From Patescibacteria group bacterium (lineage in GTDB: Bacteria; Patescibacteriota; Minisyncoccia; Phycocordibacterales; WO2-35-19), in the NCBI GenBank assembly GCA_038065655.1, contig JBBTQO010000015.1, forward strand, positions 1 through 48,010: a stretch of DNA of 48,010 nucleotides. The letters are read 5' to 3'. A program made the position numbers and the translations under genes. The first letter of the stretch is position 1, and every line of letters begins with the position of its first letter. The notes under the pieces were generated by a model that saw only the letters and a list, made by a program, of their open reading frames with translations, was not told where the DNA came from and made no database searches. This document shows positions 1,473 to 31,196 of this stretch, piece by piece.

Positions 1473-2171
1473 TTAATGCGCTATAAAAAGGCCGATGACG
1501 CGTTTGGCGTCGGAGGCGAGGAGGGCGCGGCGAGCTTCGGCGAGAGAAGCGCCGGTGGTATAGACATCATCTAAAACTATAACTACGCGATTTTTTATTT
1601 TTGTTTCTTTACTCAAAGTCAGACTTTGGGCTGAATCAGAAATAGCCATACTATTTTCAACATTTTTTATTCTTTTTTCTCGGCTCAATTTTGTTTGTCT
1701 TTCTGTCTCTCTTATCTTTTTTAAAGTATTGTAAGAAACCTCTATATTATTCTCTCCAATTTTTTTTATTTCTCTTACCAATTCTTCGCATTGATTAAAG
1801 CCTCGACTTCTCTTTTCTTTTTTACTCATTGGCATTGGTACTAAAAGTGGTGGCGCTCCTTCAAAAAGGGCAATTTCTGAAGCAATATCTAATAATTCTT
1901 CGTAAAGGTATTCAGCAACGCGTTTTCTTAAACTGGCATTGTTTTTATATTTTATTGATTTAACGATTAGTCGGACAATTTTGTTTTGATAATCAAAAAG
2001 AACAAAAATGTCTTTAGAATAAACTGGGGATTTGGGTAAAAGGTCTCGCATCAATCCTACCGGAAGGTTGTTTAGGAGTTTTTTGATTTTAAAATCCTCC
2101 GGGGCTAAAACATCTTCAATAAAAGAAACACCCTTTTCCACCCATTTTTTAAATGACTTCAATATAGACAT
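1473..2171 (-). CDS. comF: ComF-family competence phosphoribosyltransferase-like protein
   Basis: VPMPMS..RSRGFNQCEEL, RQTKLSR..R..N, VIVLDDVYTTGASL; start taken at MSILK (2171) to avoid overlap with pilM. Confidence 0.9.
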   Translation of the reverse strand: MSILKSFKKWVEKGVSFIEDVLAPEDFKIKKLLNNLPVGLMRDLLPKSPVYSKDIFVLFDYQNKIVRLIVKSIKYKNNASLRKRVAEYLYEELLDIASEIALFEGAPPLLVPMPMSKKEKRSRGFNQCEELVREIKKIGENNIEVSYNTLKKIRETERQTKLSREKRIKNVENSMAISDSAQSLTLSKETKIKNRVVIVLDDVYTTGASLAEARRALLASDAKRVIGLFIAH

Positions 2172-2190
2172 TGTGTTATAATAATACATT

Positions 2191-3294
2191 ATGAGTTTCA
2201 TTTCCGATATTTTCAAAAAGAAGAGCACTAGTGTTCTAGGGATTGATATTGGTTCTTCTTCTATAAAGGTAGTGCAACTTAAAAAGAAAGGGGATAAGGC
2301 GATTTTGGAAACATACGGAGAATTATCTTTGGGGCCCTATGCTGATGTTTCTGTCGGCCAATCTACTAACTTGCCAACAAGCAAGATTATTCAGGCAGTA
2401 AATGATTTACTAGCTGAAAAAGAAGTAGCGATTACCACCAGAATTTGCGGTTTGGCTATTCCCTTTAAGGCATCATTACTTTCTATTATAGAAATGCCAA
2501 AAACCGGGGAGAGAGAATTGGCTGGGATGATCAATATAGAAGCCCGGAAATATATACCAGTATCAATTTCTGAAGTTACCATTGATTGGTCAATTATTCC
2601 AAAATCAGAAATTGAAGAAGATATTCCAGAATCAAAAAGTAACAAAATTAAAATGGTTGATATCCTTTTAGTGGCTATTCATAATAATATAATTAATCAA
2701 TATAAAGAAATAGTTTCTAAAACTGGACTTGACGCGAAATTTTTTGAAATAGAAGTCTTTAGCTCTATGAGAGCAGTATTGGAAGGGGTGCAAGGGCCCC
2801 TTATGATTTTTGATATGGGGGCATCAACTACTAAGCTTTATATCGTAGAACGAGGTTTGGTGCATAATTCACATACCATAAATGGCGGTTCTCAAGATAT
2901 TACAGCCAATATTGCCAGAATTTTAAACATTTCTATAGAAGAAGCGGAGGTTATCAAAAGATCTGTTGGTGCCGGTAAGACAATAGACGGTGTTGATTTA
3001 TCAGAAGCGGTTTCGGTCATCTCTGAGCGCATTTTTTCTGAAGCCAATAGATTTTTGTTTGATTTTCAAAAAAAGAGAAATCAAAACATAAAATCTGTAT
3101 TTCTTACTGGTGGCGGCTCGGCTCTCAAAGGTTTTAGAGACTTAGCCGCTCAAAATTTTAAAGTAGAAGTGGTTTCCGGCAATCCCTTTGAAAAAGTAGA
3201 AGTACCAGCTTTCTTGGAAGAAATCCTCAAAGTGACTGGTCCCGAATTTACTGTTGCCACCGGTGCCGCCCTCCGTTGCTTGCAGGAGATCTAA
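2191..3294 (+). CDS. pilM: type IV pilus assembly protein PilM
   Basis: Actin-like motifs LGIDIGSSSIKVV, FDMGASTT, FLTGGGS; first gene of the pil locus. Confidence 0.95.
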   Translation: MSFISDIFKKKSTSVLGIDIGSSSIKVVQLKKKGDKAILETYGELSLGPYADVSVGQSTNLPTSKIIQAVNDLLAEKEVAITTRICGLAIPFKASLLSIIEMPKTGERELAGMINIEARKYIPVSISEVTIDWSIIPKSEIEEDIPESKSNKIKMVDILLVAIHNNIINQYKEIVSKTGLDAKFFEIEVFSSMRAVLEGVQGPLMIFDMGASTTKLYIVERGLVHNSHTINGGSQDITANIARILNISIEEAEVIKRSVGAGKTIDGVDLSEAVSVISERIFSEANRFLFDFQKKRNQNIKSVFLTGGGSALKGFRDLAAQNFKVEVVSGNPFEKVEVPAFLEEILKVTGPEFTVATGAALRCLQEI

Positions 3295-20980: not shown

Positions 20981-21565
20981 TTAGCGAAGTGGGACATACA
21001 CCACTCCTTTTCCTGTTTTTCCGACTTGTCTAATTTTACCTTCTTTTTCTAGTATTTCTAAGTATCGTGTGGCGGTAGCATCAGAAACATGAAGAAGTTT
21101 CTCTACTTCGTCATTGGTGATCTTTGGGTTTTCAGAAAATAAAGTCAGAATCTCATCAATTTTCTTTATCTTCTTATTTTGCCTTGTGAGGTTGGCTTTT
21201 TCTAGATTTTCTTGCCTCTGTTCTTTTCTGTTCTTTTAATGGCTCATTTCCTGCCATTTGAGCCGTTGCGGGTTCTTGGGTGAAAGAGGTAGGAGGTGCA
21301 TAATTTCAGTTATGGTAACAGTATCGGGAGTTTTTTCGATAGTGATGTTGGGTTTTGTTGGGTCAGTTGTGATTTGTGGGATTAGTTCAGGTTGAGGGAT
21401 TTCTTGGGTTGGGGTTATTTCGATTAAGACTGGTTCAGGAGTTTTTATTTCTTCCGGCAAAACTGGTTCTGTCGATGGTGCTTCAGGAATATTTTCCAGC
21501 GTAGGAGTAGGTTCCTGCGGAACAGGATTTTCGGAAGAAGTTGGTTGTGAAGTTTCGTCTGACAT
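20981..21565 (-). pseudogene. interrupted Pro/Glu-rich + winged-HTH (DeoR-like) protein
   Basis: ORF 21236-21565 stops at TAA; the same frame resumes with ITNDEVEKLLHVSDATATRYLEILEKEGKIRQVGKTG. Confidence 0.75.
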
Positions 21566-21599
21566 AAATATATTTTAGCAAATATGATAGTATTTTTGT

Positions 21600-21986
21600 A
21601 TGAAAGATTTTGATAATTGGAACAAGGAGAAAAAGCAAGTCAACAAAAAAGAAGTCGCCTATGATTTCTTTTATCATCCTCGTGAAGTTTGGTGGTGTGC
21701 TATTGGAGTCAATGTTGGTGTAGAAGCTGATGGCAAGCATAATAATTTTGAAAGACCGATACTTGTCATAAAAAAATTTAACAAGGATCAGTTCTGGGGA
21801 GTTCCTCTTACCTCAAACGAAAAGGTTGGCGAATTTTATCAAAAGATAAAACATGATGCAGGTATCTCATGGGCATCGTTATCTCAAATTAGAGTATTCA
21901 GTTCAAAAAGACTGCTTCGTAAGATCGGTATGATATCGGAAGATGAGTTTGAGATGATTCATAACAAGTTGAAGGGCTTGCTATAA
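21600..21986 (+). CDS. PemK/MazF-like endoribonuclease toxin (no adjacent protein antitoxin)
   Basis: KDFDNWN, REVWWCAIGVNVGVEADGK, FERPILVIKKF, GVPLTS, LSQIRVFSSKRLLRKIG. Confidence 0.85.
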   Translation: MKDFDNWNKEKKQVNKKEVAYDFFYHPREVWWCAIGVNVGVEADGKHNNFERPILVIKKFNKDQFWGVPLTSNEKVGEFYQKIKHDAGISWASLSQIRVFSSKRLLRKIGMISEDEFEMIHNKLKGLL

Positions 21987-22042
21987 AAAATCGAAACCCC
22001 ACGTCTAAGGTGGAGTTTCTCGGAGCCCGAAGGCACTAATAG
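21985..22042 (-). ncRNA. candidate ~55-nt small RNA convergent on the PemK-like gene
   Basis: Minus-strand promoter; GCC-UUCG-GGC hairpin; 10-bp terminator stem with U-run. Confidence 0.6.
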
Positions 22043-22047
22043 ATTAC

Positions 22048-22075
22048 AGTATACGCGAGCCATTATGAATGTCAA
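22048..22075 (-). promoter_or_regulatory. sigma70 promoter for the candidate sRNA
   Basis: Minus strand TTGACA (22075-22070), 16 nt, TATACT (22053-22048). Confidence 0.75.
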
Positions 22076-22203
22076 ATGAAAAAGTGGGAATTGCGGATAT
22101 TCTCGTTGGACTCTATATTTGATTGAAAACTTTCCATAACCATTTATCTTATATTGGCCCGGACACCAAAATTTCTCACCAAATCAGACAAGTCACCTTC
22201 GTG

Positions 22204-22274
22204 TTGCGGAGTTTGGATTCGCACCAAAATTTTCAGGTTATGAGCCTGACGAGTTACTATTACTCTACCCCGCA
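22204..22274 (-). tRNA. tRNA-Met(CAT), initiator-like
   Basis: TGCGGGG/CTCCGCA acceptor stem, TCAGG-CTCATAA-CCTGA anticodon arm; atypical D-loop and TGCGAAT T-loop. Confidence 0.8.
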
Positions 22275-22333
22275 ATATCTAAACATTATATACTCTTTTT
22301 GTTTTTTGGCAATTATGATAAAGTGTAAAAACT

Positions 22334-22407
22334 GTCGGGATAGCTCAGTTGGTAGTAGCACGGCATTCATAAAGCCGAGGTCGTGGGTTCGAGCCCCACT
22401 CCCGACA
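22334..22407 (+). tRNA. tRNA with CAT anticodon (elongator Met, or Ile2)
   Basis: GTCGGGA/TCCCGAC stem, TTCATAA loop, GGTTCGAGCCC T-arm. Confidence 0.85.
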
Positions 22408-22419
22408 CAAAAAGCAGAA

Positions 22420-30567: not shown

Positions 30568-30846
30568 ATGACTATCCATGAATTTATAAAAGAAAGGCCT
30601 TATCTTGTTTGGTATGTGGGCAAAAAAGACCTAGACCGACTTGATGAACCATCCATTGTTGAGCATGTTTTGAATTACGGCAATTGGGATAATGTGCAAA
30701 AAATGATTAAAATTTTAGGTTTAAAAAAGACTGCTGAAATTTTTTACAAAAAATCTACACCTGATAAATTTGGCAGACAAAATTATCGTCCGGAAATTAA
30801 ACATTATTTTCAGTTGTATTTTAATAAGCATATTCAAAATGCATAA
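30568..30846 (+). CDS. putative antitoxin partner of AbiEii-type toxin
   Basis: YLVWYV..IVEHVLNYGNWD; translationally coupled to the AbiEii-like remnant. Confidence 0.65.
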   Translation: MTIHEFIKERPYLVWYVGKKDLDRLDEPSIVEHVLNYGNWDNVQKMIKILGLKKTAEIFYKKSTPDKFGRQNYRPEIKHYFQLYFNKHIQNA

Positions 30847-31196
30847 AGAAATTCTTACTGATGCACAAAATAAATTATTCAAAAAGTTTTGGCTATAGAA
30901 TAAAAATACCAAACCTCTTAACTCTAGCGGCTATGAAAGCCTTTGCTTTAGGGCAGCGAGCCAAGTGGAAAGATTATGTTGATTTGTACTTTATTATTAA
31001 AGACCATTTTTCGATTAGTCAAATTTCCCAAAAAAGCCAAGAAATTTTTGGGCCTGTGTTTAATGAAAAACTTTTCAGAAGCCAACTGGCTTATTTTGAT
31101 GGTATAAATTACGAAGAAGTTGTGAATTTTTTACCTGGCTTTGAAGTGACAGACGAAATAATCAAGCAAAAACTGATTGATTTTAGTTTGGAATAA
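30839..31196 (+). pseudogene. AbiEii/AbiGii nucleotidyltransferase toxin with internal deletion and frameshift
   Basis: Starts MHKEILTDAQ at 30839 and stops after 19 codons; another frame carries LAAMKAFALGQRAKWKDYVDLYFI; the N-terminal catalytic part (GGTAL-type motif) is missing. Confidence 0.75.

Follow-up and report, generated by a model that had tools for sequence, protein, structure and literature searches.

A MazF-family toxin gene of Patescibacteria faces a conserved small-RNA gene that may serve as its antitoxin

MazF is the standard example of a type II toxin, one that is paired with a protein antitoxin. Here we analysed a MazF/PemK-family toxin gene (21600-21986, plus strand) and the small-RNA gene predicted to face it from the minus strand (21985-22041), in a 48,010-nucleotide stretch of DNA from a Patescibacteria group bacterium (GenBank assembly GCA_038065655.1, contig JBBTQO010000015.1), hereafter called the window. 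Comparison with homologs indicated that a sizeable MazF subfamily lacks a protein partner and has, as its constant companion, a small structured RNA gene absent from Rfam. Across a phylum with ultra-small genomes, the toxin gene and the RNA gene are co-inherited in contexts that bear no relation to one another. We propose that the two form a two-gene module in which the RNA is probably the antitoxin, in the place of MazE. As to how such an antitoxin would act, we tentatively put forward a type I-like antisense action on the 3' end of the toxin mRNA, function and expression being predicted.

A toxin gene and a facing small-RNA unit

A sequence-only reading of this DNA had described an orphan PemK/MazF-like toxin gene with a minus-strand unit directly downstream, and the features that it listed were all recovered. 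The open reading frame (ORF) at 21600-21986 is intact and encodes 128 amino acids. The divergent ORF upstream starts at 21565, so that 34 bp separate the two starts and there is no space for an upstream antitoxin of the MazE type. On the other side of the toxin gene, a predicted near-consensus promoter occupies 22075-22048 of the minus strand (TTGACA at 22075-22070, a 16-nt spacer and TATACT at 22053-22048; 11/12). The RNA predicted from it is ~57 nt long (21985-22041), with a start placed ~7 nt past the -10 box and a 3' end in a U-run. It would comprise a short single-stranded 5' tail, a 5' hairpin GCC-UUCG-GGC (22034-22025) and a 10-bp hairpin followed by the U-run (22019-21985), which is the predicted intrinsic terminator of the small RNA. 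A terminator scan returned 10 pairs and a 7-nt loop, with stem arms GAAACUCCAC/GUGGGGUUUC at 22019-21993 and the tail GATTTTTTAT. The U-run (21990-21985) shares 2 nt with the TAA stop codon of the toxin gene (21984-21986), and the unit thus barely overlaps the coding sequence, as had been noticed. A G-U pair in the terminator stem, which reads as a C-A mismatch on the plus strand, had been taken as a pointer to the minus strand and is present.

The 57-nt RNA folds at -18.3 kcal/mol (z -2.29) on the minus strand and at -15.1 kcal/mol (z -1.73) on the plus strand. Fold energy alone is a modest signal for a small RNA; the more-than-chance case comes from the comparison of homologs. Rfam models searched over the element reached no family in the window (best rnk_pseudo, 28.5 bits against a gathering score of 55), and no Rfam family covered the element in 20 homolog loci or in four Campylobacterota loci. 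The possibility that the unit encodes a conserved small protein was rejected: 10 of 55 RNAs have no start codon in their first 16 nt, the ORFs found where a start is present are 2-39 amino acids long or have no stop, and hairpin lengths vary by non-multiples of 3.

The small-RNA unit is conserved beside the toxin gene

We assembled a set of 74 loci with a near-full-length toxin homolog and found by inspection that the small-RNA unit lies downstream of the toxin in 72 of them. A fixed criterion was also applied, namely a sigma-70-like promoter matching at least 10/12 positions inside a 105-nt window that begins 20 nt past the toxin end. Such a promoter was present on the antisense strand in 62/74 loci, as compared with 3/74 on the sense strand and 1/74 in shuffled sequence. 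The expectation that homologs would share promoter, hairpin and terminator was thereby borne out for the promoter; the structural part is dealt with below. A TG precedes the -10 box in 37 of 67 promoters. After the -10 box, the consensus runs N5 then tA.AAaTgGc, which corresponds to the 5' tail of the RNA together with the first arm of the 5' hairpin. No other part of the RNA family is as well conserved in sequence as this tail and the 5' hairpin, which keep their sequence across toxins that are just 35-45% identical, outside any coding overlap.

Conservation was also visible at close range. The toxin of the closest ortholog (genome G025) is 79% identical to that of the window, and the two RNAs agree at 52 of 57 positions, as compared with 74 of 104 for the coding sequence next to them. 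Three substitutions in the RNA all fall in the stem and keep pairing (a compensatory double change, and a G-U pair turned into G-C); a compensatory stem change in the terminator hairpin was seen against ortholog L012. Both promoter hexamers are kept in the closest ortholog, and the spacer and the DNA beyond have diverged. Separately, two loci carry two RNA units in tandem after one toxin gene, L066 (G202:C1) and L050 (G388:C11), and the second unit of L050 resembles the tail of a lost toxin copy.

The genome that holds the window (603 kb in 21 contigs, 100% complete by marker genes) carries two further toxin homologs, on contigs C1 and C17, neither of them near a tRNA. The C1 copy (G000:C1:2333-2763; locus L002, 1501-1965) is 45% identical to the toxin of the window and has an in-frame TAG at the second Trp of a conserved WW motif. 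It also lacks the stop codon at the usual end, and an intact small-RNA unit follows. The C1 element is conserved at the DNA level in a different reading frame; the middle pair of its small hairpin is flipped, and the opposite strand preserves both promoter hexamers (-35 and -10). The C17 copy is 35% identical; its RNA differs in sequence and follows the same plan, with a convergent TTGACA-16-TACACT promoter and two hairpins bearing AUUA and GAAA loops.

Within the family to which this genome belongs, 31 of 39 genomes carry the toxin, in one to four copies each; across the phylum, 54 of 401 sampled genomes do. When 1.84 billion representative sequences were searched with a profile, the matches amounted to 547 clusters (50% identity) at E<=1e-30 and 2043 at E<=1e-10. 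Public records label toxin homologs as "type II toxin-antitoxin system PemK/MazF family toxin".

Strand, structure and layouts of the small RNA

When 55 RNAs were folded one at a time, each gave a short 5' tail and then two hairpins, in line with the structural part of the expectation. Of 107 hairpin loops on the antisense strand, 35 belong to the GNRA class and 26 to the UNCG class; neither class occurs among the 96 loops of the sense strand. In 40 of the 55 RNAs, the better fold is that of the antisense strand, and the middle base pair of the 5' hairpin flips from GC to CG in 14 of 35 distinct sequences. We also built two covariance models, R1 from eight seeds of a three-hairpin type and R2 from seven seeds of the window type. 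In an alignment of 36 R1-matched sequences, 98.4% of cells are paired and two-sided changes occur in 6 of 9 pairs; none of 500 shuffles equalled this pairing, and the signal was lost on sliding the partners. This alignment was fitted to the model, and the covariation figures therefore lean towards structure; the single-sequence folds are independent of it. RNAalifold predicted no pairs on a plain MAFFT alignment of the 55 RNAs, because stems of unequal length were misaligned, and we relied instead on the single-sequence folds and the model-based alignment.

Two layouts were distinguished. In the window and some relatives, the second hairpin with its U-run ends the RNA at the toxin stop codon, and a separate terminator for the toxin transcript is missing ahead of the RNA gene. 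Many other relatives have, after the second hairpin, an A-rich stretch and then a third, long hairpin. The latter is made of the last toxin codons and the bases after the stop, has U-runs on both strands and is predicted to be a bidirectional terminator. The 75 nt that follow the second hairpin fold across the toxin stop codon at -17.6 kcal/mol or lower in 15 loci. In both layouts, the predicted transcripts of toxin and RNA would be complementary over ~35-55 nt.

Toxin and RNA genes behave as a pair

The covariance models were used to ask where the RNA occurs. In the 39 family genomes, 24 of 29 R1 matches (E<=1e-3) and 15 of 19 R2 matches (at least 28 bits) lie directly downstream of a toxin match and convergent with it. 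Weaker R2 matches often occur on both strands and resemble generic terminators. With strict filters, R1 gave two matches in 151 genomes of the phylum sample, both abutting toxin genes, its sensitivity being clearly low; with the same low sensitivity, it gave none in 131 phylum-sample genomes without a toxin match. The window RNA scores 69.2 bits with R2, of which it is itself a seed, and the unit on contig C1 scores 60.8 bits. Within this genome, strong R2 matches are found only beside the two toxin paralogs, both of which are R2 seeds, and the remaining matches (at most 23.4 bits) resemble generic terminators. A BLAST search of the element against its own genome found no other copy. A dispersed hairpin repeat in this genome was rejected on the basis of this search and of the restriction of strong R2 matches to the toxin paralogs.

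Decay of the two genes is asymmetric. Four toxin copies with premature stops retain the RNA (L002, L040, L045 and L046). Seven RNA-model matches that looked like orphans were inspected for toxin remnants, and three of them sit beside remnants at E<=1e-3 (L087, L088 and L090), which consist of the N-terminal 17-27 residues only, or of both termini with the middle deleted; the remnant at L089 is weaker (E 0.012). Dead toxins that keep the RNA thus outnumber intact toxins that go without it, which is the pattern expected of a toxin-antitoxin pair.

No conserved candidate for a protein partner emerged. Among stop-to-stop ORFs of at least 70 amino acids within 1.2 kb, no family recurred in more than 3 of 61 loci, and among ORFs of at least 35 amino acids within 350 nt, none recurred in more than 5 of 74 loci. 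The most widely shared short-ORF families are either reading frames that cross the conserved DNA of the RNA unit or a TrmB-like regulator, which was seen in five loci. An adjacent, co-transcribed antitoxin of the MazE or PemI kind was not found, and no conserved protein neighbour either. Since the flanks are otherwise unrelated, toxin and RNA appear to move as one module. Tandem or direct repeats were not found near the toxin gene.

The predicted toxin

The 128-residue protein matches the Pfam family PemK_toxin (PF02452) with an E value of 5.5e-12 and 46.3 bits, above the cut-off of 23.1. With the NCBIfam MazF equivalog model it scores 12.6 bits, below the threshold of 120, and none of the PADLOC models matched it. 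An AlphaFold model made from 25 family members (pLDDT 81.1) was compared with the Protein Data Bank (PDB) by Foldseek, and the top matches were all MazF chains, at probability 1.00 and TM 0.6-0.67. The nearest solved structure is MazF-mt1 (E 1.7e-6), followed by the MazF proteins of S. aureus, E. coli and B. subtilis. A PDB search with the toxin-family profile led to B. subtilis MazF/EndoA (E 7e-8). In the profile alignment, R52, invariant in the family, and T71, conserved as T/S, pair with Arg25 and Thr48 of EndoA, which we take to be catalytic residues. By Pfam match, predicted fold and aligned Arg/Thr, the protein is a predicted MazF/PemK endoribonuclease. A helix is added to the MazF core at its N-terminus, in which W7 and K11 are invariant across the family.

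A candidate toxin promoter abuts the ATG (21559-21599, plus strand; CTGACA-18-TATGAT, 10/12) and ends 11 nt before it, and no Shine-Dalgarno sequence precedes the start codon. Inspection of 60-70 nt upstream in ~70 loci gave the same picture in many homologs, that is, a TGnTAnAAT-like box placed 5-12 nt ahead of the start codon, and again no Shine-Dalgarno sequence. The placement of the box beside the start codon suggests that the toxin mRNA is leaderless or nearly so.

How the RNA may act

Among the mechanisms conceivable for an RNA antitoxin, we favour an antisense action on the 3' end of the toxin mRNA, because the anatomy fits that of 3'-overlapping type I systems and because the genome encodes RNase III (143.8 bits). 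The RNA strand is antisense to the toxin and has its own predicted strong promoter and terminator. An abundant small RNA would anneal to the toxin mRNA at its complementary 3' end. In the window, this mRNA would contain the full ~55-nt complement in its 3' untranslated region, since no toxin terminator precedes the RNA gene; in many relatives, both transcripts would instead share a bidirectional terminator hairpin spanning the toxin stop codon. RNase III would cut the duplex, the toxin mRNA would lose its protective 3' end, and little toxin would be made. Loss of the module, or of the RNA, would then release the toxin. The 3'-overlapping type I systems of Bacillus work by this antisense/RNase III route.

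Several observations weigh against this proposal. Two loci lack the RNA unit: at L062 the toxin is apparently intact, with an atypical C-terminus, and at L104 (G015:C49:10122 onward) a single open frame of 294 amino acids joins the toxin to a Nudix-like domain (the Nudix-box-like motif being assigned by eye). Three of the seven orphan RNAs have no toxin remnant beside them (L086, L091 and L092 (contig end)). The only RNA run found (share 0.05) covers the upstream tRNA-Met alone (22203-22277), with contigs from other organisms, and is silent on the small RNA. Where the toxin mRNA ends at the shared terminator, it would not reach the most conserved part of the RNA, and pure antisense action leaves the conservation of the 5' tail and first hairpin unexplained. 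GNRA and UUCG tetraloops are, besides, poor start sites for RNA-RNA pairing. Predicted pairing with the 5' end of the toxin mRNA did not distinguish cognate from non-cognate RNAs (-10.37 vs -10.76 kcal/mol, p 0.66), and the 5' tail alone showed no specificity for it (-4.31 cognate, -4.33 non-cognate). A conserved part outside the overlap, together with tetraloops, fits protein recognition better, and this keeps alive a type III-like reading, in which the small RNA would bind the toxin protein as a structured decoy or pseudo-substrate. The 5' tail would lie in the RNA groove of the MazF dimer, the first hairpin would serve as an anchor and the N-terminal W/K helix would provide an added RNA-binding surface. 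We regard this as rather unlikely. The conserved 5' tail and first hairpin do persist beside divergent toxins, and stable tetraloops are typical of protein-recognised or scaffold RNAs, not of kissing loops. The W7/K11 extension co-occurs with the RNA in Patescibacteria-like genomes and in Campylobacterota, and the Bernardetia homolog (L112) has no such RNA. The tandem units at L066 and L050 are also in line with binding to the protein, and RNAs kept beside dead toxins could guard against paralogous toxins. However, the repeats and the upstream co-transcribed array of described type III families are missing here, and the toxin is MazF proper by its fold matches, rather than ToxN, AbiQ, CptN or TenpN. 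Moreover, the near-identical RNAs of distant paralogs would be expected to cross-react, which toxin-antitoxin pairs usually avoid. It is doubtful that a phylum-wide MazF family, present also on Campylobacterota plasmids and prophages, is neutralised by direct binding of a single, separately transcribed, non-repeated 55-95-nt RNA read by the W/K helix. Should this be true, protein-binding RNA antitoxins would gain a new architecture, and MazF would prove to have changed the chemistry of its antitoxin.

The RNA might also be linked to the toxin without being its antitoxin, as a regulator of other targets, as a substrate processed by MazF or as an insulating promoter/terminator cassette. Linkage and conservation alone do not tell the role of the RNA, the two toxin loci devoid of it show that the toxin can persist alone, and insulation would help a module found in so many unrelated contexts. 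Yet a catalytically equipped MazF with no other conserved partner needs some control, the RNA is retained beside decayed toxins much more often than it is missing beside intact ones, and a mere insulator would not require a conserved 5' tail and first hairpin. On these grounds we think a role other than antitoxin unlikely. A further idea is that the unit is the ordinary terminator of the tRNA-Met upstream (22274-22203), of the toxin gene or of both, and that the promoter hexamers arose by chance. The tRNA-Met gene is on the same strand and has a promoter of its own, no other terminator lies in between, and promoter-like sites are frequent in this AT-rich DNA (17 in 3 kb vs 8.7 expected). Nevertheless, the unit follows the toxin into contexts free of tRNA genes, including two other places in the same genome, and its hexamers are conserved while the spacer has diverged. 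The strong excess of antisense over sense promoters among homologs and the presence of a second, non-terminator hairpin with covariation point the same way. This idea is highly improbable, and is already contradicted by the comparative data as read from the sequences. For its part, the antisense proposal is one that we hold as plausible and tentative, within the more probable view that the RNA is an antitoxin.

Relation to known systems

Convergent type I systems that overlap at their 3' ends include txpA/RatA and bsrG/SR4 of B. subtilis and par RNA I/RNA II of E. faecalis. The module of the window resembles them in that a predicted RNA with its own predicted promoter would head towards the toxin gene and overlap its 3' end or share a bidirectional terminator with it, in the lack of a protein antitoxin, and in the presence of RNase III in the genome. 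It differs in that the toxins of those systems are membrane peptides of less than ~60 amino acids, whereas here the toxin is a soluble MazF-fold protein of 128 amino acids, and in that the most conserved part of the RNA, with its tetraloops, lies outside the overlap. The type III systems, ToxIN, AbiQ/antiQ, CptIN and TenpIN, have toxins of the wider Kid/MazF-like fold. They share with our module the pairing of a Kid/MazF-like endoribonuclease with a small structured RNA instead of a protein, control by the RNA being putative here. In contrast, their RNA is an upstream tandem repeat array, co-transcribed with the toxin gene and processed by the toxin, whereas here a single convergent unit lies downstream, with its own predicted promoter and without repeats, and the toxin matches MazF and no PADLOC model. 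With mazEF/pemIK, the module has in common a PF02452 match above cut-off, the MazF fold and the aligned Arg/Thr. Unlike mazEF/pemIK, it has neither MazE/PemI nor any other conserved neighbour, its toxin bears an extra N-terminal helix, and the toxin gene lies 34 bp from a divergent gene, apparently with its own promoter at the ATG.

The N-terminal motif recurs in homologs carried by plasmids of Campylobacter, Helicobacter and Nitratiruptor and by Campylobacter prophages. Downstream of the toxin gene, on the opposite strand, Nitratiruptor has two hairpins and a convergent extended -10 box; H. suis has three hairpins and a convergent extended -10 box downstream of its toxin gene, and the pVir and CJIE4 genes have two hairpins downstream on the opposite strand. 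Neither R1 nor R2 matched loci L071-L073. Among the distant homologs of Bacillota and Bacteroidota (L110-L112), no RNA unit was evident; the Bernardetia locus L112, the only canonical short MazF checked, has a small ORF upstream. As a separate observation, a 62-amino-acid ORF on the Nitratiruptor plasmid (L071, 1910-2098, plus strand) begins inside the small-RNA promoter region and looks ribbon-helix-helix-like by eye; it could be a putative protein antitoxin added to the RNA, or replacing it, in that lineage.

The pVir homolog (30634-31038) is 41% identical to the window toxin over residues 28-104 (E 3e-8), matches PemK_toxin (E 8.2e-8) and is the sole gene of pVir annotated in a toxin-antitoxin family. 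Citing passages in two articles (PMC10470494; PMC7826846) mention cjrA/cjpT of C. jejuni pVir, reportedly a type I system in which an antisense RNA acts as antitoxin. This system resembles our module in combining a reported antisense RNA antitoxin with a protein toxin, on a plasmid that carries a PemK homolog with the same N-terminal motif and two antisense hairpins. It differs in that the downstream sequence of pVir could not be aligned with the window RNA, and CjpT may be a gene other than the PemK homolog. The type II pair also reported for pVir was not recovered by Pfam searches of other ORFs on the plasmid. We thus consider cjrA/cjpT, from what these excerpts state, as a lead rather than a test, one that may provide a Campylobacter precedent for the toxin/RNA module. 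Accordingly, the suggestion of the sequence-only reading that the system is new finds no support, given the similar downstream layout of this toxin subfamily on Campylobacter plasmids and the type I system reported for pVir. A search of the literature on PemK/MazF with RNA antitoxins, on orphan MazF and on toxin-antitoxin systems of Patescibacteria turned up no account of such an RNA. The E. faecalis mazEF/txpA locus, considered as a match, was rejected, as its arrangement is a different one, with a type II pair beside a type I peptide (PMC3074167).

What emerges is a predicted MazF toxin with a dedicated convergent small-RNA gene that is conserved across a phylum, and it may have a Campylobacter precedent. 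If the RNA is the antitoxin, the "orphan" MazF genes of ultra-small, host-dependent bacteria would be complete addiction or defence modules of ~0.55 kb, which surveys that seek only protein pairs overlook. Under the same condition, the module would offer a simple system in which to study how one toxin fold switches between protein and RNA antitoxins, and it would tie uncultivated Patescibacteria-like genomes to mobile elements of Campylobacter and Helicobacter.

Neighbouring features

Upstream of the small-RNA unit, on the same strand, lies a tRNA-Met (CAT) gene (22203-22274, minus strand) with the promoter TTGCCA-16-TATAAT at 22312-22285, which the sequence-only reading had overlooked. No terminator was found between this gene and the small-RNA terminator, ~180 nt further on; since the tRNA gene has its own promoter, the small-RNA terminator could also end the tRNA transcript. 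A second tRNA-Met (CAT) gene is divergent from the first (22334-22408, plus strand). Elsewhere, at locus L052, a LOOT RNA (RF03000, 74.3 bits; 2153-2270, plus strand) and two tRNAs lie within 1 kb of the toxin/RNA module.

On the other side, the divergent gene (20983-21565, minus strand) consists of a 109-amino-acid ORF rich in Pro, Glu and Thr that closes at a TAA. Past this TAA, the same frame encodes a winged helix-turn-helix domain (HTH_24, E 3.8e-7), which lacks a start codon of its own (ATG, GTG or TTG). The interruption may reflect a nonsense mutation, a sequencing error or read-through. The peptide RLKWQEMS, which closes the upstream ORF of the window (21240-21265, minus strand), recurs just upstream of the toxin in locus L017, in the orientation of the toxin.

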